Shown here: positions 4,352 to 43,256 of the stretch, piece by piece
Numbering within the stretch: position 1 is the first letter of the stretch
Layout: each line of letters begins with the position of its first letter
From: Enterobacteria phage mEp460
Sequence record: NC_019716.1
Strand: one strand, 5' to 3'
Length of the DNA stretch: 44,510 nucleotides
Program-made: the position numbers and the translations under genes
Notes under the pieces: model-generated
What the model was told of the DNA's origin: nothing
Seen by the model: only the letters and a program-made list of their open reading frames with translations
Database searches by the model: none

Positions 4352-6310
4352 ATGCAGGCTGGTCACCAGAGTGACGCGGATATTTATATTTATGACGAGA
4401 TTGGTTTCTGGGGTGTTACAGCGAAGCAGTTTATCAGTGATCTGAATGCACTGGGCGATATCACCCACATTAATCTCCATATTAATTCACCGGGTGGCGA
4501 TGTCTTTGAAGGCATCGCCATTTTTAATGCGCTGAAAACACATGGTGCGTCCATTACCGTTTATGTCGACGGTGTGGCGGCGTCAATGGCGTCGGTCATT
4601 GCGATGGTGGGAAACCCGGTCATTATGCCGGAAAACACCTTCATGATGATTCATAAACCATTTGGCTTTACGGGCGGTGATGCGGAGGACATGCGCACCT
4701 ATGCCGACCTGCTCGATAAAGTTGAGGCGGTTCTGTTACCCGCTTATGCACAGAAAACCGGGAAAACCACCGATGAAATTGCTGCCATGCTGGCGGATGA
4801 GACCTGGATGTCCGGTGCCGAATGTCTGGCACATGGATTTGCTGATCAGGTGACACCAGCCGTTAAGGCAATGGCATGTATTCAGTCAAAACGTACAGAG
4901 GAATTTAAAAAGATGCCGGAATCCATTCGAAATATGATTACTCCGCCACGCAACAGTGCTCCACGCGTACAGGATGATGGACCTGCAGCCTCCCGGACGC
5001 CAGTGCAGGCAGCAGCACCCGTGGTGGATGAAAACAGCATCCGTGCGCAGGTCCTGGCAGAGCAAAAAGCGCGTGTAAACGGTATTAATGATCTGTTTGC
5101 CATGTTTGGCGGGCGTTATCAGTCGTTGCAGGCTCAGTGTCTTGCCGATCCTGAATGTTCGCTGGAGCAGGCCCGCGAAAAGCTGTTGAACGAGATGGGG
5201 CGCGAGTCCACGCCATCCAATAAAAATACCCCGGCTCATATTTATGCCGGTAACGGTAATTTTGTGGGGGACGGGATCCGCCAGGCGCTGATGGCGCGCG
5301 CCGGGTTTGAAAAAACCGAACGTGATAATGTCTACAACGGGATGACCCTGCGTGAATATGCCCGTATGTCACTAACTGAACGTGGTATTGGTGTTTCCAG
5401 TTATAACCCGATGCAGATGGTCGGTGCGGCGTTCACACACAGTACGTCTGACTTCGGTAATATTCTGCTGGATGTTGCGAACAAAGCCATTCTGCAGGGC
5501 TGGGAAGATGCCCCTGAAACCTATGAACAGTGGACGCGGAAAGGTCAGTTGTCTGATTTTAAAATTGCCCATCGTGTGGGTATGGGGGGCTTCAGTGCTC
5601 TGCGTCAGGTGCGTGAAGGGGCAGAATATAAATACGTCACCACCGGAGATAAACAGGCCACTATTGCACTGGCGACCTATGGCGAGCTGTTCAGTATCAC
5701 CCGTCAGGCCATTATCAATGATGATCTGAATATGCTGACCGATGTCCCGATGAAGCTGGGCCGTGCGGCGAAATCCACTATTGCCGATCTGGTTTATGCC
5801 ATTCTGACGTCTAACCCGAAAATCTCCACAGATAATGTAAGTCTGTTCGATAAAGCGAAACATGCAAACGTACTGGAGAGCGCGGCAATGGACGTGGCAT
5901 CGCTGGATAAAGCCCGCCAGTTGATGCGCGTTCAGAAAGAGGGGGAGCGTCATCTGAATATTCGTCCTGCGTTCGTACTGGTACCGACGGCGATGGAGTC
6001 TGTTGCTAACCAGGTCATTCGCTCCTCAAGTGTCAAGGGGGCTGACATTAACGCCGGTATTATTAACCCGGTGAAAGATTTTGCGACCGTTATTGCAGAG
6101 CCTCGTCTTGATGATAACAGCCAGACCACCTTCTACCTGGCTGCGTCAAAAGGCTCCGATACGATTGAAGTGGCTTATCTCAACGGTGTGGATACGCCAT
6201 ATATTGATCAGATGGAGGGCTTCAGTGTGGATGGCGTGACAACGAAAGTGCGTATTGACGCCGGTGTCGCGCCAGTTGATCACCGCGGTCTGGTGAAATG
6301 TACGGCGTAA
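4352..6310 (+). CDS. Fused prohead protease (ClpP/S14-like) and major capsid protein (HK97 fold)
   Basis: N-terminal ClpP-like region (IYIYDEIGFWG...INSPGGDVFEG...SMASVIAM) followed by capsid-like C-terminal half; ORF-track start 4091 overlaps portal, ATG 4352 preferred. Confidence 0.8.
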   Translation: MQAGHQSDADIYIYDEIGFWGVTAKQFISDLNALGDITHINLHINSPGGDVFEGIAIFNALKTHGASITVYVDGVAASMASVIAMVGNPVIMPENTFMMIHKPFGFTGGDAEDMRTYADLLDKVEAVLLPAYAQKTGKTTDEIAAMLADETWMSGAECLAHGFADQVTPAVKAMACIQSKRTEEFKKMPESIRNMITPPRNSAPRVQDDGPAASRTPVQAAAPVVDENSIRAQVLAEQKARVNGINDLFAMFGGRYQSLQAQCLADPECSLEQAREKLLNEMGRESTPSNKNTPAHIYAGNGNFVGDGIRQALMARAGFEKTERDNVYNGMTLREYARMSLTERGIGVSSYNPMQMVGAAFTHSTSDFGNILLDVANKAILQGWEDAPETYEQWTRKGQLSDFKIAHRVGMGGFSALRQVREGAEYKYVTTGDKQATIALATYGELFSITRQAIINDDLNMLTDVPMKLGRAAKSTIADLVYAILTSNPKISTDNVSLFDKAKHANVLESAAMDVASLDKARQLMRVQKEGERHLNIRPAFVLVPTAMESVANQVIRSSSVKGADINAGIINPVKDFATVIAEPRLDDNSQTTFYLAASKGSDTIEVAYLNGVDTPYIDQMEGFSVDGVTTKVRIDAGVAPVDHRGLVKCTA

Positions 6311-14943: not shown

Positions 14944-17900
14944 ATGGGTAAAGGCAGCAGTAAGGGGCATACCCCGCGCGAAGCAAAGGACAACCTGAAG
15001 TCCACGCAGTTGCTGAGTGTGATCGATGCCATCAGCGAAGGGCCGATTGAAGGTCCGGTGGATGGATTAAAAAGCGTGCTGCTGAACAGTACACCGGTGC
15101 TGGACAGTGAGGGGAATACTAACATCTCCGGTGTCACGGTGGTGTTCCGGGCAGGTGAGCAGGAACAGACACCGCCGGAGGGATTTGAATCCTCCGGTTC
15201 CGAGACGGTACTGGGTACGGAAGTGAAATACGACACGCCGATCACCCGGACCATCACGTCGGCAAACATTGACCGTCTGCGCTTTACCTTCGGTGTGCAG
15301 GCACTGGTGGAAACCACCTCAAAGGGGGATAGGAATCCGTCGGAAGTTCGCCTGCTGGTTCAGATACAACGTAACGGTGGCTGGGTGACGGAAAAAGACA
15401 TCACCATTAAGGGCAAAACCACCTCGCAGTATCTGGCCTCGGTAGTGGTGGATAATCTGCCGCCGCGCCCGTTCAACATCCGGATGCGCAGGATGACGCC
15501 GGACAGCACCACAGACCAGCTGCAGAACAAAACGCTCTGGTCGTCATACACCGAAATCATCGATGTGAAACAGTGCTACCCGAACACGGCACTGGTCGGC
15601 GTACAGGTGGATTCGGAGCAGTTCGGCAGCCAGCAGGTGAGCCGTAATTATCATCTTCGCGGGCGTATTCTGCAGGTGCCGTCGAACTATAACCCGCAGA
15701 CGCGGCAATACAGCGGTATCTGGGACGGAACGTTTAAGCCAGCATACAGCAACAACATGGCCTGGTGTCTGTGGGATATGCTGACCCACCCGCGCTACGG
15801 CATGGGTAAACGTCTTGGTGCGGCAGATGTGGATAAATGGGCGCTGTATGTCATCGGCCAGTGTTGCGACCAGTCGGTGCCGGACGGTTTTGGCGGCACG
15901 GAGCCGCGCATCACCTGTAATGCCTGGCTGACCACACAGCGTAAGGCGTGGGATGTTCTCAGTGATTTCTGCTCGGCGATGCGCTGTATGCCGGTATGGA
16001 ACGGGCAGACGCTGACGTTCGTGCAGGACCGACCATCAGATAAGGTGTGGACCTATAACCGCAGTAATGTGGTGATGCCGGATGATGGCGCGCCGTTCCG
16101 CTACAGCTTCAGCGCCCTGAAGGACCGCCATAATGCCGTTGAGGTGAACTGGATTGACCCGGATAACGGCTGGGAGACGGCGACAGAGCTTGTGGAGGAC
16201 ACGCAAGCCATTGCCCGTTACGGTCGTAACGTCACGAAGATGGATGCCTTTGGCTGTACCAGGCGGGGGCAGGCGCACCGCGCCGGGCTGTGGCTGATTA
16301 AAACGGAACTGCTGGAGACGCAGACCGTGGACTTCAGCGTGGGTGCCGAAGGGCTTCGCCATGTGCCGGGCGATGTTATTGAAATCTGTGATGATGACTA
16401 TGCCGGTATCAGCACCGGCGGGCGCGTGCTGGCGGTGAACAGCCAGACGCGGACACTGACGCTCGACCGTGAAATCACGCTGCCATCCTCCGGCACCACG
16501 CTGATAAGCCTGGTTGACGGGCAGGGTAATCCGGTGAGCGTGGAGGTCCAGTCCGTCACCGACGGCGTGAAGGTAAAAGTGAGCCGTGTTCCTGACGGCG
16601 TTGCCGGATACAGCGTATGGGGGCTGAAGCTGCCGACGCTGCGCCAGCGCCTGTTCCGCTGCGTGAGTATCCGTGAGAACGATGACGGCACGTATGCCAT
16701 CACTGCCGTGCAGCATGTACCGGAGAAAGAAGCCATCGTGGATAACGGGGCGCACTTTGACGGTGACCAGAGTGGCACGGTGAATGGTGTCACGCCGCCA
16801 GCAGTTCAGCACCTGACCGCAGAAGTCACCGCAGACAGCGGGGAATACCAGGTGCTGGCGCGCTGGGACACGCCGAAGGTGGTGAAGGGGGTGAGCTTTA
16901 TGCTTCGCCTGACCGTGGCAGCGGACGACGGCAGTGAGCGGCTGGTCAGCACGGCCCGGACGACGGAAACCACATATCGCTTCACGCAGCTGGCGCTGGG
17001 AAATTACAGGCTGACAGTCCGGGCGGTAAATGCATGGGGACAGCAGGGCGATCCTGCATCGGTATTGTTCCGGATCGCCGCACCGGCAGCGCCGTCGCGG
17101 ATTGAGCTGACGCCGGGCTATTTTCAGATAACCGCCACGCCGCATCTTGCCGTTTATGATCCGACGGTACAGTTTGAGTTCTGGTTCTCGGAAAAGCGGA
17201 TTGCGGATATCAGGCAGGTTGAAACCACAGCCCGCTATCTTGGTACGGCGCTGTACTGGATAGCCGCCAGTATCAATATCAAACCGGGCCATGATTATTA
17301 CTTTTATATCCGCAGTGTGAACACAGTCGGCAAATCGGCATTTGTGGAGGCCGTCGGTCGGGCGAGCGATGATGCGGAAGGTTACCTGGATTTTTTCAAA
17401 GGCCAGATAACCGAATCCCATCTCGGCAAGGAGCTGCTGGAAAAAGTCGACCTGACGGAGGATAACGCCAGCAGACTGGATGAGTTTTCGAAAGAGTGGA
17501 AAGACGCCAACGATAAATGGAATGCCATGTGGGGCGTCAAAATTGAGCAGACCGAAGACGGTAAGCATTATGTCGCGGGGCTTGGCCTCAGCATGGAGGA
17601 TACAGAGGAAGGCAAACTGAGCCAGTTTCTGGTTGCCGCCAATCGTATCGCGTTTATTGACCCGGCAAACGGGAATGAAACGCCGATGTTTGTGGCGCAG
17701 GGCAACCAGATATTCATGAACGACGTGTTCCTCAAACGCCTGACGGCCCCCACCATTACCAGTGGTGGAAATCCACCGGTATTTTCCCTGACACCGGACG
17801 GAAAGCTGACCGCTAAAAATGCGGATATCAGTGGCAGTGTGAATGCGAACTCCGGGACGCTCAACAACGTCACGATAAATGAAAACTGTACGATTAAGGG

Positions 17901-18357
17901 TATGCTGGAGGCGAATCAGGTCAGAGGTGATTTTGTTAAAACAGTATCCAAATCATTCCCGAAAAAGGCAGGTACGTGGGGTAACACGGAAACACCAGAC
18001 GGGACGGTTACAGTCACCATCAGCGATGATCATAACTTTGACCGTCAAATCATTATTCCGCCCATTATCTTTAACGGTATAGCGTATGACGATCCGGGAA
18101 GTGGTAATAACCCGGGAGGTACAAGGTACACGGGGTATGGTTTTGAAGTTCGCAAAAACGGCGTATTAATCGCATCCAGAGAAACTAAAGGGGCCATTCC
18201 CGGTAGTTACAGTGCGGTTATTGATATGCCGAGTGGCAGGGGAAGCGTCACTCTGGAGTTTAAGGTTTTCCAGAAAGGCAATCAGGGGGCAGGCAATATC
18301 ACCGACTGTACGGTGATTGTGACCAAAAAGGCTGCTTCCGGCATCAGTATTCGTTGA
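14944..18357 (+). CDS. J: Central tail fibre / host specificity protein J
   Basis: 1137 aa, lambda gpJ-like N-terminus ([24 protein letters not shown]...) and fibronectin-III-like middle; C-terminal part read as divergent. Confidence 0.9.
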
Positions 18358-38976: not shown

Positions 38977-39729
38977 ATGAACCTTGAAGCCTTACCAAAA
39001 TATTACTCCCCAAAATCTCCAAAATTGAGCGATGACGCACCGGCGACAGGCTCAGGTGGTTTAACGATTACGGATGTGATGGCTGCGCAGGGGATGGTGC
39101 AGTCGAAAGCACCGCTTGGGTTTGCCTTATTCCTGGCAAAAGTTGGTGTTCAGGATCCTCAATTTGCGATTGAAGGTCTGCTCAATTACGCGATGGCACT
39201 GGATAACCCGACATTGAACAAATTGAGTGAAGAAACCCGGTTACAGATCATCCCTTACCTTGTGAATTTTGCCTTTGCTGATTATTCCAGGTCTGCGGCA
39301 AGTAAGGCTCGCTGTGAGCATTGTGCTGGTACTGGATTTCATAATGTATTGCGCGAAGTGGTGAAACACTCCAGAAGCGGGGAATCTGTTATCAAGGAAG
39401 AGTGGGTGAAGGAACTATGTCAGCATTGTCATGGTAAGGGAGAAGTCAGCACAGCGTGCAGAGGGTGTAAGGGTAAAGGTATTGTCCTGGATGAAAAAAG
39501 GACCCGGCTTCATGGCACGCCTGTTTATAAGATTTGTGGGCGTTGCAATGGAAACCGGTTTAGCCGTTTACCAACCACACTGGCGCGGCATCATGTCCAG
39601 AAGCTGGTACCAGACCTGACGGATTATCAGTGGTACAAAGGATATGCAGATGTCATTGATAAACTGGTTACAAAGTGCTGGCAGGAAGAAGCATATGCAG
39701 AGATACAATTGAGAAAGGTGACAAGATAA
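38977..39729 (+). CDS. Late antitermination protein Q
   Basis: About 250 aa with Cys-rich Zn-binding segment (CEHCAGTG...CQHCHGKGE...CRGCKGKG...CGRCNG); followed by promoter and terminator. Confidence 0.75.
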   Translation: MNLEALPKYYSPKSPKLSDDAPATGSGGLTITDVMAAQGMVQSKAPLGFALFLAKVGVQDPQFAIEGLLNYAMALDNPTLNKLSEETRLQIIPYLVNFAFADYSRSAASKARCEHCAGTGFHNVLREVVKHSRSGESVIKEEWVKELCQHCHGKGEVSTACRGCKGKGIVLDEKRTRLHGTPVYKICGRCNGNRFSRLPTTLARHHVQKLVPDLTDYQWYKGYADVIDKLVTKCWQEEAYAEIQLRKVTR

Positions 39730-39760
39730 ATGGTTTTCGCCGAAGATGACGACATGATGC

Positions 39761-39789
39761 TTGCATTTTTCAAAAAATATGGATAAGAT
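39761..39789 (+). promoter_or_regulatory. Putative late promoter pR' (TTGCAT-17-TAAGAT)
   Basis: Sigma70-like hexamers with 17-bp spacer, 30 bp after Q stop and about 50 nt before a terminator. Confidence 0.45.
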
Positions 39790-39835
39790 TTTCCCAACGA
39801 TGGGCTTTGTATGTCTACCGTTGATAAGATTTAAG

Positions 39836-39860
39836 AACCCGCCCCTGAGCGGGTTTTTTT
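39836..39860 (+). terminator. tR'-like intrinsic terminator
   Basis: AACCCGCCCC-TGAG-CGGGTTTTTTT. Confidence 0.65.
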
Positions 39861-40009
39861 GTGCCTGATGTCTCATGAAACTATGAAATGGATTGGTGCG
39901 TTAAACATTTTTTCTTATTATCTTTTAGATTTTGGAGAGATGGTTAACGTCTGTATTCCAGAAACTCGATGATTATTTAATAAATTAGTTTCAATGATGC
40001 TTCTAGGTT

Positions 40010-40435
40010 ATGACTGTAATGAAAAAGGTATTAATAGCAGCGATAGGTTTTTGTTTAGTTGGTTGTGCAGGTATGAAATTACCTGAGTATTCGCAAGTTA
40101 AAGCAAGTCCGTATTATACAGATTGCCGTGCGTTTGCCATGGATGTTTATAAAAATGATGGATACAGCAAAATTGCGAAAACTACTATCCTTAGCATGGA
40201 TGATGTGAAGGCTAGATATATTGTGACAGGGTGTGTAGTTGCTATGGGGAAAAACACTGTAGAGGAAATCAAAGCTGATCTCTCTGCTAAAGGGAGTTCT
40301 TTTGGGCTTATCAGTGGAGCTTGTTCTAGTGCGGCATGTCGGGTTGATGTAGAGCAGCAAATGAACGCTTATGTACTTGGTAGTTATTATGCTGCAAATA
40401 AAAAATTCCCGGATAAAATGAAAGCAGAGTTTTAA
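40010..40435 (+). CDS. Lipoprotein moron (signal peptide plus LVGC lipobox), function unknown
   Basis: 141 aa; N-terminal hydrophobic stretch ending in LVGC; six further Cys; AT-rich codons; between tR' and a second terminator. Confidence 0.6.
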   Translation: MTVMKKVLIAAIGFCLVGCAGMKLPEYSQVKASPYYTDCRAFAMDVYKNDGYSKIAKTTILSMDDVKARYIVTGCVVAMGKNTVEEIKADLSAKGSSFGLISGACSSAACRVDVEQQMNAYVLGSYYAANKKFPDKMKAEF

Positions 40436-40512
40436 GTAAACCTTGTTTTCGATTATATGTCGAAGATAAATGTTAGTAACGGCATAATAAGTAAATATAT
40501 AGCTGTAATAGC

Positions 40513-40537
40513 AACCCGCCACTGAGCGGGTTTTTTG
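40513..40537 (+). terminator. Intrinsic terminator, near-identical copy of tR'
   Basis: AACCCGCCACTGAGCGGGTTTTTTGTACCTG versus AACCCGCCCCTGAGCGGGTTTTTTTGTGCCTG at 39836. Confidence 0.65.
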
Positions 40538-40634
40538 TACCTGTAAACTTGGTGCAGTACAGTAAACACGCTGGTGGTCGTGAATACTGACTTTTTATCT
40601 TGCTGGCTTTTTAGACAAGAGTTATTGGTATGTC

Positions 40635-40862
40635 ATGTTAACCAGAAGGGAAAAAGACATGCTAAAACAGCAAGATATGACAGAAACCGCCGCCGCAGTC
40701 CTTCATTTCTTACCTGCTGACAAGTGGGTAACGCCACGCATGATGACGAGAACTACCGGAGTAAGCGAAGCCCGGTGCCAGTTAATACTGACTCAGTTAG
40801 TTCTGGCGGGTCTGGCGAAGGATAACGGCGGGTACGGGAATAAATTCAGACGCTGCCAGTAA
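40635..40862 (+). CDS. Small hypothetical protein, possibly winged-helix
   Basis: 75-aa ORF (possible start ATG 40659) upstream of the methyltransferase gene. Confidence 0.35.
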   Translation: MLTRREKDMLKQQDMTETAAAVLHFLPADKWVTPRMMTRTTGVSEARCQLILTQLVLAGLAKDNGGYGNKFRRCQ

Positions 40863-41012
40863 TGGCGGTTTCCTGCTGTGAAAATGGGCGGCTGGTGGGT
40901 GTTGGTAGCACCTGCCAGCCATTCGCTCATGCTTACTGGTCACAAGCGAACCACGGCCCACTGCTTTAGCGCAAAAGCAGAGTGAGCCTACCAGAGTTAC
41001 GCTTACTGATCC

Positions 41013-42065
41013 ATGAAAAATACTGTAAAAATAAACAGTGCTGATTTAATCAACGCTGATTGCCTGCATTTTATTCAGTCCCTGCCTGATGATTCCATTG
41101 ACCTGATTGTTACCGATCCGCCGTACTTCAAGGTGAAACCCAACGGCTGGGACAATCAGTGGAAAGGGGACGAAGATTACCTTAAGTGGCTGGACCACTG
41201 TCTGGCCCAGTTCTGGCGGGTGTTAAAACCTGCCGGAAGCCTTTACCTGTTCTGTGGGCATCGCCTGGCATCTGATATTGAGATCATGATGCGTGAACGT
41301 TTCAACGTGCTTAACCATATCATCTGGGCGAAGCCGTCCGGACGTTGGAATGGGTGTAATAAAGAAAGTCTGCGCGCATATTTTCCTGCCACAGAGCGCG
41401 TTCTGTTTGCTGAACATTACCAGGGGCCATATCGTGGCAAAAGTGACGGCTATGCGGCAAAAGAAAGGGAACTCAAACAGCACATAATGGCACCGCTGAT
41501 ATCGTATTTCAGGGATGCTCGTGCCGAACTGGGTATAACGGCAAAACAAATTGCCGAAGCCACAGGTAAGAAAAATATGGTTTCCCACTGGTTTGGTGCC
41601 AGTCAGTGGCAGTTGCCGAATGAGGCTGACTATCGGAAGTTACAGGCACTGTTTTCCCGTATAGCGGCAGAGAAGTTTCAGGAACAACAACTGGAACAAC
41701 CACACCACCAGCTGGTGGCATCTTATGATTCACTGAATCGCAAATATTCTGAATTGCTGGATGAGTTTAAATCTCTCCGGCGCTATTTCTCCGTATCAGT
41801 CTCCGTGCCTTATACCGATGTCTGGATGCATAAACCCGTTCAGTTCTACCCGGGTAAACATCCGTGTGAGAAACCGGCGGATATGCTCAGGCAAATAATC
41901 AATGCCAGTAGTCGACCCGGTGATCTGGTTGCTGATTTTTTTATGGGATCCGGTTCCACAATAAAAGCAGCAATGGCGCTGGGGCGTCGGGCCTTAGGTG
42001 TTGAGCTTGAGTCAGAGCGGTTTAACCAGACAGTGAAAGAGATAAACGAGCTGGTGGGGAAATAA
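41013..42065 (+). CDS. Beta-class DNA methyltransferase (N6-adenine or N4-cytosine), orphan
   Basis: DPPY catalytic motif N-terminal (LIVTDPPYF), AdoMet motif C-terminal (DFFMGSGST); no partner restriction gene. Confidence 0.85.
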
Positions 42066-42132
42066 TCTGGTGGCCACGTCAGGTGGCCTTTTTATTTCCA
42101 TTACACAGCACCCGCATCTGCGAGGTGGGGTT

Positions 42133-42348
42133 ATGAAATCCATGGATAAGTTAACAACGGGTGTCGCCTATGGCACCTCAGCAGGTAGTGCCGGGTACTG
42201 GTTTTTACAGTTGCTCGATAAAGTCACGCCCTCACAGTGGGCGGCAATAGGTGTGCTGGGTAGTCTGGTATTTGGCCTGCTGACGTACCTGACAAACCTT
42301 TATTTCAAGATTAAAGAAGACAAGCGTAAGGCTGCACGGGGAGAGTAA
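42133..42348 (+). CDS. Class II holin, phage 21 S-like pinholin with dual-start motif
   Basis: [26 protein letters not shown]... with two TMDs and charged C-terminus; GAGGTGG SD; M1/M4 dual start. Confidence 0.75.
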
Positions 42349-42352
42349 TTCA

Positions 42353-42667
42353 ATGACTCAAAACTATGAACTGATTGTGAAAGGGATCCGCAATTTTGAG
42401 AATAAAGTTACGGTAACTTTAGCGTTACGGGACAAAAACCGCTTTGACGGTGAAATTTTTGACCTGGACATCTCGCTGGACCGTGTTGAAGGTGCCGCGC
42501 TGGAGTTTTATGAGGCAGCAGCCAGAAGGAGCATCAGACAGGTCTTCCTGGATGTTGCTGCCGGGTTATGTGAAGGGGACGAGCTGTTGCCAGAAACGCG
42601 CCCCTGTTCAGAGGCGCGGTATACCATAAAAATTAACAGTTCTGATAACTCGATTACGGGTTGTTAG
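42353..42667 (+). CDS. Hypothetical protein inserted between holin and endolysin
   Basis: 104-aa ORF, no TM segments, acidic; function unknown. Confidence 0.45.
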   Translation: MTQNYELIVKGIRNFENKVTVTLALRDKNRFDGEIFDLDISLDRVEGAALEFYEAAARRSIRQVFLDVAAGLCEGDELLPETRPCSEARYTIKINSSDNSITGC

Positions 42668-42722
42668 CTTTTTGCAGTTGGCTTTCCAGTATCTTTCATT
42701 GGTAGCATCCTGATAAATATCC

Positions 42723-43256
42723 ATGAGCGCAAAAATCAAATACGGCCTGTCAGCTGCTGTTCTGGCGCTGATTGCTGCAGGCGCGTCTGCTCCTCAAATC
42801 CTTGACCAGTTTCTTGATGAAAAAGAGGGTAACCACACTACGGCATACCGCGATGGTTCCGGTATATGGACCATCTGTCGTGGTGCCACAATGGTGGATG
42901 GTAAGCCCGTCATACCGGGAATGAAGCTGTCGAAGGAAAAATGCGACCAGGTTAACGCTATTGAACGTGATAAGGCGCTGGCATGGGTGGAGCGCAATAT
43001 TAAAGTACCACTGACCGAACCACAGAAAGCGGGTATAGCGTCATTTTGTCCCTATAACATTGGCCCCGGTAAGTGTTTCCCGTCGACGTTTTATAAGCGG
43101 CTGAATGCCGGTGATCGTAAGGGTGCATGTGAGGCGATTCGCTGGTGGATAAAAGATGGTGGGCGCGATTGCCGCATACGTTCAAATAACTGCTATGGAC
43201 AGGTTATTCGTCGTGACCAGGAAAGCGCATTAGCCTGTTGGGGGATAGATGAGTGA
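42723..43256 (+). CDS. SAR endolysin (T4-lysozyme-like muramidase with N-terminal signal-anchor-release domain)
   Basis: N-terminal weakly hydrophobic Ala/Gly-rich segment, then E-8aa-D-5aa-T catalytic triad ([18 protein letters not shown]). Confidence 0.85.

Follow-up and report, generated by a model that had tools for sequence, protein, structure and literature searches.

A lipoprotein gene between two copies of a terminator downstream of the late promoter of a lambda-like phage

The cassette and its bracketing terminators

The window analysed here (sequence record NC_019716.1, 44,510 nucleotides) is a complete lambda-like siphovirus genome that runs from terminase through J, Lom and the side tail fibre to the integrase, the early region, the antiterminator gene Q and the lysis genes. 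Directly downstream of Q lies an AT-rich cassette that carries a lipoprotein gene and is bracketed by two near-identical terminators, T1 and T2. The antiterminator Q (38977-39729, plus strand, 250 aa) belongs to the lambda-Q family (Pfam PF03589, E=9.6e-54; phrog_127), and lambda Q itself matches the same Pfam family. It is followed on the same strand by the late promoter pR' (39761-39804), composed of the -35 element TTGCAT (39761-39766), a 17-nt spacer, the -10 element TAAGAT (39784-39789), six further nucleotides and AACGATGGG (39796-39804). This promoter is of the lambda type because it is collinear with lambda pR' (TTGACT-17-TAAATT-6-AACGATGGG), including AACGATGGG, within which AACGAT is lambda's sigma-dependent pause element. 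The transcription start was placed by sequence at about 39796-39797. The T1 hairpin (39836-39860, plus strand) begins about 41 nt further on and is predicted to act as tR'. It was identified by repeat and folding analysis, and its counterpart is the sole terminator at the corresponding sites of Shigella phage SfV and coliphage vB_EcoM-720R4.

A pR' leader ending at T1 would be about 65 nt long (lambda 6S RNA has 194 nt), and it lies at the position where Stx phages reportedly make the small RNA StxS. No Rfam family came near its gathering score between 39500 and 42400. We also noted that GATAAGATTT occurs twice, 41 nt apart, once at the pR' -10 element (39782-39791) and once just upstream of T1 (39823-39832). 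The second -10-like copy lies too far downstream of the start for the location of a lambda-type pause element.

T2 (40513-40537, plus strand) was picked up by repeat, folding and terminator scan. The two terminators share the direct repeat AACCCGCC[C/A]CTGAGCGGGTTTTTT (39836-39859 and 40513-40536; 24 nt, 23 of 24 identical, i.e. 96%) at a spacing of 677. A pattern search of the 44.5 kb allowing three mismatches returned only these two sites, with 0.00 expected (100 shuffles). Their similarity extends over about 32 nt, up to GT[G/A]CCTG, if one indel and two mismatches are allowed. Both copies fold into G+C stems of 7-10 bp followed by a run of 6-7 U, with folding energies of -14.1 kcal/mol for T1 (z -3.7) and -13.5 kcal/mol for T2 (z -1.9). 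The terminator scan reported T2 and missed T1; our guess is that the extended stem of T1 takes up part of the T run. The GenBank record of coliphage Ayreon, a close relative (99.6% identity across 39700-40640), marks both sites as terminators. With its hairpin and U run, T2 would provide the cassette with a factor-independent terminator of its own, i.e. a downstream insulator, and it forms the left edge of the module that holds a 75-aa open reading frame (ORF), a methylase gene and the lysis genes.

The terminator core is the only repeated part within the window. A longer ancient duplication, with 40436-40512 as a decayed copy of the pR' region (39730-39835), was considered and rejected, as the local alignment score of 14 was reached by 703 of 1000 shuffles; the stretches 3' of T1 and T2 likewise aligned no better than shuffled sequences. 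In 42 filled loci of the E. coli type, the T1-T2 spacing was 676-677 nt and each copy kept its own marks (T7 and GTGCC for T1, T6 and GTACC for T2), so the copies do not appear to undergo homogenisation.

The cassette interior (39861-40512, plus strand, 652 nt) has a GC content of 35.7%, compared with 50.9% for the window, and is the lowest stretch of its length there; 0.05% of such stretches are as low. Measured from terminator copy to terminator copy, the unit comprises 677 bp and encodes the lipoprotein only. About 150 nt upstream of the gene can be aligned among the E. coli, Salmonella and Hafnia cassettes. A candidate sigma-70 promoter lies in this region (39893-39921, plus strand), and despite divergence of the spacers, -35/-10-like pairs occur at the same position in all three lineages (TTGGTG-17-TATTAT in E. 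coli, TTGGTA-18-TATCAT in Salmonella, CTGGTG-18-TATGAT in Hafnia). Two further ORFs are probably artefacts of the AT-rich sequence, namely a 37-aa ORF (39859-39972, plus strand), which is annotated as a gene in Ayreon and overlaps the conserved promoter-like motif, and a 147-aa antisense ORF (40079-40522, minus strand) spanning the lipoprotein gene. A first-pass annotation had described an AT-rich cassette between two near-identical terminator hairpins just past Q, pR' and tR'. Its late-operon location and composition agree with the results above, and the shared core, loop and flanks of the hairpins indicate that they are homologous.

The lipoprotein and its family

The lipoprotein gene (40010-40435, plus strand) encodes 141 aa if translated from ATG 40010, as first annotated. 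That ORF is present, but the ATG at 40019, which yields a protein of 138 aa beginning MKK, is the likelier start. The signal peptide MTVMKKVLIAAIGFCLVGC has a lipobox, LVGC, at its end; Cys19 is the lipid-attachment residue and is followed by Ala at +2. The peptide has a positively charged n-region, a hydrophobic h-region and a lipobox of the form [LVI][ASTVI][GAS]C, and MKKVLIAAIGFCLVGC fits a relaxed pattern for lipoprotein signals. The strict PROSITE-like pattern is missed solely because of a Cys at -4; four of the seven other members of our alignment pass it, and all but one of the aligned family members fit the lipoprotein signal-peptide pattern. This alignment (A2) contains eight family sequences with 54-98% identity to the window protein. 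The +2 residue is Ala or Ser in all of them and never Asp, and the protein would therefore be sorted to the outer membrane according to the +2 rule.

Across the eight sequences, 60 residues are invariant. The lipoprotein assignment, as initially proposed, is borne out by a conserved lipobox, Cys19 being invariant in the alignment. The description as Cys-rich was an overstatement: the protein has 6 Cys in 141 aa, one of which (Cys15, in the signal peptide) is not conserved. The mature protein of about 122 aa does contain, besides the lipid-attachment residue, four invariant Cys (Cys39, Cys75, Cys105 and Cys110). With synonymous sites close to saturation, dN/dS between lineages ranges from 0.08 to 0.22, which indicates a real gene under strong purifying selection. 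The AlphaFold2 (AF2) model is an all-helical bundle (pLDDT 79), which is probably held together by two disulfides.

The full-length protein matches phrog_4748 (residues 1-141 to profile positions 1-141 of 141, E=7.5e-91), a PHROGs family of unknown function. A word-indexed search of 5.8 billion proteins yielded 9 clusters, a profile search yielded 34 clusters, all from Enterobacterales (Escherichia, Salmonella, Klebsiella, Citrobacter, Hafnia, Serratia and Buttiauxella), and an exhaustive HMM search of 1.84 billion representatives yielded 8 family members. Named clusters among the 34 were called 'hypothetical protein' and none contained a Pfam domain. The exact window protein occurs on at least 1000 contigs under the name 'hypothetical protein' or, assigned automatically, 'Lipoprotein'. 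One tblastn match in Pseudomonas phage UF_RH1 (28.7% identity, E=8e-4) was treated as spurious, as the lipobox and the cysteines are missing in the alignment.

Scans against Pfam, NCBIfam and PADLOC at E<=0.01 returned no family for the lipoprotein, including none of Bor, Cor, Llp, TraT, Rz1 and Ltp. A sequence search of the PDB gave no significant match, and a fold search with the model gave no relative and no fold shared with these six proteins. On this evidence, the protein appears to stand outside every characterised lipoprotein or exclusion family. Superinfection exclusion, receptor masking and virulence had all been suggested as functions; the sequence, profile and fold searches found no relative of known function to support any of them. 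The genome note on Ayreon is silent on the gene, no paper citing the RefSeq protein accession was found, and the moron, lipoprotein and Stx2c literature gave nothing specific on it.

Filled and empty sites and homologues elsewhere

SfV and 720R4 share the gene order KilA-N, DUF968, Q, 65-68-aa ORF, methylase and holin with the window, their Q genes having 93-98% DNA identity to the window Q, and both contain one terminator instead of T1, cassette and T2. In the alignment of these empty sites, left flank, terminator and right flank are joined without a gap. The single terminator is of the T1 type in SfV and of the T2 type in 720R4, mEp460 and cdtI. Among 5426 complete E. coli genomes, the empty site (same Q and downstream genes, single terminator) was present in 425 and the filled site in 215 (about 4%). 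The cassette was always full-length at >=95% identity and never located on plasmids. Because one-terminator empty sites exist, the 677-bp unit is an insertion or deletion bounded by the terminator, and the insertion signature read earlier from the direct repeat holds to this extent.

The breaks of homology were surveyed in an evenly spaced sample drawn from the 1767 matching records. Records matching only on the left stop at query positions 158-166, just 3' of T1, whereas those matching only on the right mostly start at query position 814 (i.e. 40513, where T2 begins); in hundreds of E. coli genomes, the match is confined to the sequence rightwards from there. The terminator therefore appears to be the joint between interchangeable left and right modules.

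Different cargo was found at the same point in other genomes. In phage Lys8385Vzw, stx1AB comes directly after a tR' at the same position, with the same pR' and the same Q (98.8% aa identity). E. coli VE-V10-F (NZ_AP027971.1; 2640-3290 of the extracted locus) carries a different AT-rich cassette with an unrelated 176-aa ORF, in which no Pfam domain was detected, and its own different terminator. Since the lipoprotein cassette, stx1AB and the VE-V10-F ORF are all placed just past tR', this position appears to be a recurrent cargo site. It had been described as equivalent to the stx position, which is correct for stx1 but not for stx2: Stx2c and Stx2k phages carry the cassette and have stx2 about 2 kb further downstream. 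In the Stx2c phage examined, the order is Q, T1, lipoprotein, T2, 75-aa ORF, methylase, tRNAs, stx2AB and holin, and the Stx2k phage has the same order with no detectable methylase copy. The cassette region is matched at 99.8% identity by every one of the 15 Stx2c phages in the phage collection, indicating that the lipoprotein gene travels together with stx2c. The window itself contains no tRNA genes, which are frequent companions of stx.

The right flank lies outside the cassette. It comprises (i) the 75-aa ORF (40635-40862, plus strand; phrog_331), named 'TrmB family regulator' in the Stx2k phage record; (ii) an N6/N4 DNA methyltransferase gene (41013-42065, plus strand, 350 aa; PF01555, E=2.2e-42; PADLOC MTase_II); and (iii) the P21-type holin gene S (42133-42348, plus strand; PF04971), the first lysis gene. 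A gene of the 75-aa-ORF type adjoins the single terminator at empty sites. The cassette was said to lie between Q/pR'/tR' and the lysis genes, and it does, but the lysis genes are not adjacent, as the 75-aa ORF and the methyltransferase gene separate T2 from the holin. These two genes (40635-42065) form a conserved module between tR' and holin that is common to SfV, cdtI and mEp460; Salmonella retains no more of the methylase than its C-terminal third. The terminator scan also reported a third, unrelated terminator-like hairpin upstream of the holin (42072-42088). The lysis cassette (42070-43256) contains the P21-type holin, a DUF1327 ORF (42353-42667) between holin and endolysin, and a lysozyme that looks SAR-like, with a hydrophobic N-terminal segment.

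Homologues of the lipoprotein were found in seven kinds of place. Besides the E. coli-type loci, they follow a Q of the DUF1133/PF06530 type in Salmonella prophages (nine loci; 74-75% aa identity by tblastn, 76% by BLASTP) and a Q of the PF06323 type in Hafnia (67-68% identity); the cassette family thus follows three unrelated Q families, including PF03589. Other Salmonella prophages have a homologue in the early region beside VapBC, KilR and RecE, and a homologue is present in SSU5-like phage-plasmids of about 110 kb (Klebsiella, Citrobacter and Buttiauxella). A 55%-identical homologue lies on the Serratia chromosome (5001-5429 in loci L023 and L024) between a MarR/outer-membrane-factor/EmrA/EmrB-like efflux operon and yfiF-trxC. 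No phage genes were found within 5 kb of it, and it may be an ancestral or domesticated copy. A distant family member occurs in an IS-rich region. In the phage-plasmids (e.g. L006 6446-6745 and L014 2931-3230; also L071-L087), a second small lipoprotein gene begins 11-20 nt 3' of the homologue. This gene encodes a 99-aa product with the lipobox LSGC and several Cys, possibly a partner protein without a counterpart in the lambdoid cassettes.

In all three contexts after Q, the cassette is bracketed by a direct repeat containing a terminator. The repeat measures 24-32 nt in the 42 E. coli-type loci, 37 nt (diverged) in Salmonella and 80-102 nt with 94% identity in Hafnia (loci L021 and L022, 4707-4808 and 5539-5640). 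At five phage-plasmid loci, the two-gene unit is enclosed by a terminator repeat of 35 nt. From our reading of the alignment, part of a T1 flank of the E. coli/Salmonella type apparently survives within the longer repeat of the Hafnia cassette, which suggests a separate insertion that again duplicated local sequence. The Hafnia interval before the holin also holds a ParE toxin gene, a gene for an HTH protein and, on the opposite strand, a flagellin gene. Cassette carriers have different holins and endolysins, i.e. the cassette is not tied to one lysis module. We also compared the J receptor-binding domain (last 140 aa; window J at 14944-18357) in five carriers. It is about 96% identical in four of them (the window, Ayreon, Stx2c and Stx2k phages) and 39% identical in PhiR47_1, also a carrier; this comparison is too small and phylogenetically dependent to decide on masking of the phage's own receptor.

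Possible working, rival readings and related systems

We lean towards the view that the cassette is an insulated moron, an independent transcription unit gained by horizontal transfer, that is expressed both alone and by Q-dependent read-through and whose product acts at the cell envelope. In the lysogen, a short pR' transcript would end at T1, the lipoprotein gene could be transcribed from the candidate promoter within the cassette, and T2, the copy of T1, would halt this transcript ahead of the methylase and lysis genes. Upon induction, RNA polymerase modified by Q would start at pR' and pass T1, the gene and T2, and the lipoprotein would also be made late, together with the lysis proteins. 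The product would be exported by Sec, lipidated at Cys19 and, given Ala at +2, sorted to the outer membrane, where it would form a periplasmic helical bundle, probably with two disulfides. The duplicated terminator would be an insertion scar, retained as both sides of the unit need a terminator. The first-pass annotation had deduced Q-dependent expression from the position of the gene. This is a sound deduction, although probably not the whole story, because the promoter-like motif is conserved in three lineages and homologues lie beyond Q control. Such homologues, found outside any Q-to-lysis interval (in the early region by VapBC, in SSU5-like phage-plasmids and on the Serratia chromosome), support the autonomy of the unit.

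The lipoprotein is probably useful to the phage or the lysogen at the cell surface, as suggested by strong purifying selection and by its placement after three unrelated Q antiterminators. Among envelope functions, the exclusion or blocking of other phages (superinfection exclusion or receptor masking) would be the foremost candidate, an assignment that we offer tentatively, as possible but short of probable. It is suggested by the phage-borne, autonomous nature of the unit in several unrelated genomic positions, by its independence of any one lysis module and by the fact that temperate-phage outer-membrane lipoproteins with known roles mostly act by exclusion or receptor masking.

Several points weigh against the insulated-moron view. 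Three of the contexts lie directly after a Q gene, so late Q-driven expression could be what matters. The candidate cassette promoter matches the consensus at 8 of 12 positions and was not reported by the standard scan, and the ribosome-binding site is weak at either start codon. The polarity of the indel, i.e. insertion versus deletion, is not readable from the sequences, and the VE-V10-F cassette occupies the same slot without terminator duplication, which is thus not general to the site.

Two rival readings concern the anatomy itself and were already disfavoured by the evidence at hand. That the ORF is a chance, non-functional one in AT-rich filler DNA would fit its weak ribosome-binding site and the presence of a 147-aa ORF on the opposite strand, but it is extremely improbable given the low dN/dS across lineages at saturated synonymous sites, the full length kept in 34 clusters, the 60 residues invariant in eight sequences and the confident AF2 model. 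Scarcely more credible is the proposal that the hairpins are independent terminators, alike since this G+C-rich type is common, which would make the repeat uninformative about insertion. Similar stems (AACCCGCC...GGCGGGTT) do close unrelated genes in phage-plasmids, but T1 and T2 share loop and flanks besides the stem (23 of 24 bases, then GT[G/A]CCTG, with zero chance matches expected), empty sites hold exactly one copy joined to both flanks, and the Hafnia repeats of 80-102 nt reach well past the hairpin.

The remaining rivals accept the cassette and differ on its role. The T5 lipoprotein Llp masks FhuA on lysing cells and debris, thereby sparing progeny, and the window protein might likewise be a late accessory for lytic growth only, essentially Q-dependent, that masks the phage's own receptor on lysing cells or debris or modulates envelope breakdown. 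In favour of this, each of three lineages has the cassette immediately 3' of a Q gene, and these Q genes belong to three unrelated families; the cassette is also on the same strand as the late operon, the only barriers being terminators overridden by Q, and one J receptor-binding domain (about 96% identical) is common to four of the five carriers examined. We nevertheless find this reading doubtful, as homologues occur beyond the reach of Q (early region, phage-plasmid replication regions, Serratia chromosome), the lysis modules differ among carriers, the carrier PhiR47_1 has a J receptor-binding domain of only 39% identity, and the promoter-like motif within the cassette is conserved. Somewhat less likely still is a role without phage-phage conflict, either as a host-fitness or virulence factor of the lysogen, as in the case of lambda Bor, or as a periplasmic protein that confers immunity to, or inhibits, a cell-wall hydrolase or bacteriocin. 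This would suit the carriage by Stx2c and Stx2k phages and by genomes of human isolates (e.g. JJ1886 and JJ1887), the moron architecture, which may include its own promoter, and the Serratia chromosomal copy beside an efflux-pump operon; small disulfide-bonded helical periplasmic proteins include known immunity proteins.

Two routes to the duplicated terminator can be envisaged. A circular 'gene plus terminator' integrating by a single crossover at the resident terminator fits the pattern, and the reverse excision would leave an empty site. Alternatively, two illegitimate joints formed on sister genomes may have been followed by selection for a terminator on both sides, since one keeps pR' silent and one keeps the cassette promoter off the lysis genes. 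We favour the second route, without direct evidence, because it needs no special machinery and explains both the variable repeat length and the absence of duplication where the cassette (VE-V10-F) brings its own terminator. Early-left ORFs were also scanned for a recombinase able to act on short homologies; they matched DUF2303, an HD-hydrolase-like protein, Ea22, DUF551 and an exonuclease, and none of those scanned matched Red-beta, RecT or Erf. A more far-reaching reading, which we regard as unlikely, is that the cassette is an integrase-less mobile unit that recombines at terminator hairpins between temperate phages, a circular gene-plus-terminator form entering at a resident terminator and later leaving it, and that its product is a new outer-membrane exclusion or receptor-masking factor travelling with Stx2c phages. 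This would explain the duplicated local terminator in four genomic contexts and the common, precise one-terminator empty sites.

Databases already list the product of the gene as a hypothetical protein; the features that deserve further work are its joint carriage with stx2c and the repeated occurrence of terminator copies on both sides. The gene is found in about 4% of the complete E. coli genomes, in one Stx2k phage and in each of the 15 sequenced Stx2c-converting phages of the collection, annotated only as 'hypothetical'. If the product does block other phages or mask a receptor, it bears on phage therapy and on the spread of Stx phages. The recurrent duplication of a terminator may also serve as a clean natural example of how morons insert and of what prevents them from turning on lysis genes.

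Among known systems, the stx1 operon of Lys8385Vzw resembles the cassette in position, with the same Q, pR' and tR' position and cargo directly past the terminator; it differs in its cargo and in the lack of a terminator duplication. The stx1 genes have their own promoter and are also read from pR' under Q. As small phage lipoproteins with a lipobox and a predicted outer-membrane location, Cor (phi80, N15, HK022), Llp (T5), Bor (lambda) and Rz1 resemble the window protein, which shares no sequence similarity with them and is predicted to be an all-helical bundle with two probable disulfides. Cor and Llp block FhuA, Bor confers serum resistance and Rz1 is a spanin; Cor and Bor are morons of temperate phages. 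Ltp of Streptococcus phage TP-J34 is a prophage-encoded, lipid-anchored helical superinfection-exclusion protein acting outside the cytoplasmic membrane (PMC3952083). The window protein is likewise phage-encoded, helical and predicted to be lipid-anchored, but the host of Ltp is Gram-positive and neither sequence nor fold gave a detectable match, i.e. the likeness is one of analogy only.

Integron gene cassettes are also promoter-poor single-gene units with hairpin-forming repeats at their bounds and with filled and empty sites one unit apart. In contrast to these, the repeat described here is an ordinary terminator with a 7-bp stem and a U run rather than attC, there is no integron integrase nearby, and the VE-V10-F cassette lacks the repeat. 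The unit encodes the lipoprotein only, its sole inverted repeats are the palindromic terminators, and repeat length varies between 24 and 102 nt across contexts; it thus appears to be neither an integron cassette nor a transposon.

Morons were defined as extra genes of the lambdoid phages HK97 and HK022 by Juhala, Hendrix and colleagues (reviewed in PMC3594210). Like them, the cassette adds a gene in some otherwise collinear phages, lies between modules, has a low GC content and is followed by a predicted factor-independent terminator; a candidate promoter lies upstream of its gene. On the strength of its presence in 215 and absence from 425 E. coli genomes as well as from SfV and 720R4, its atypical base composition and its predicted terminator, it appears to be a moron in the HK97/HK022 sense. 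What sets it apart is that its downstream terminator is a copy of the resident tR' and that such bracketing recurs in four genomic contexts.

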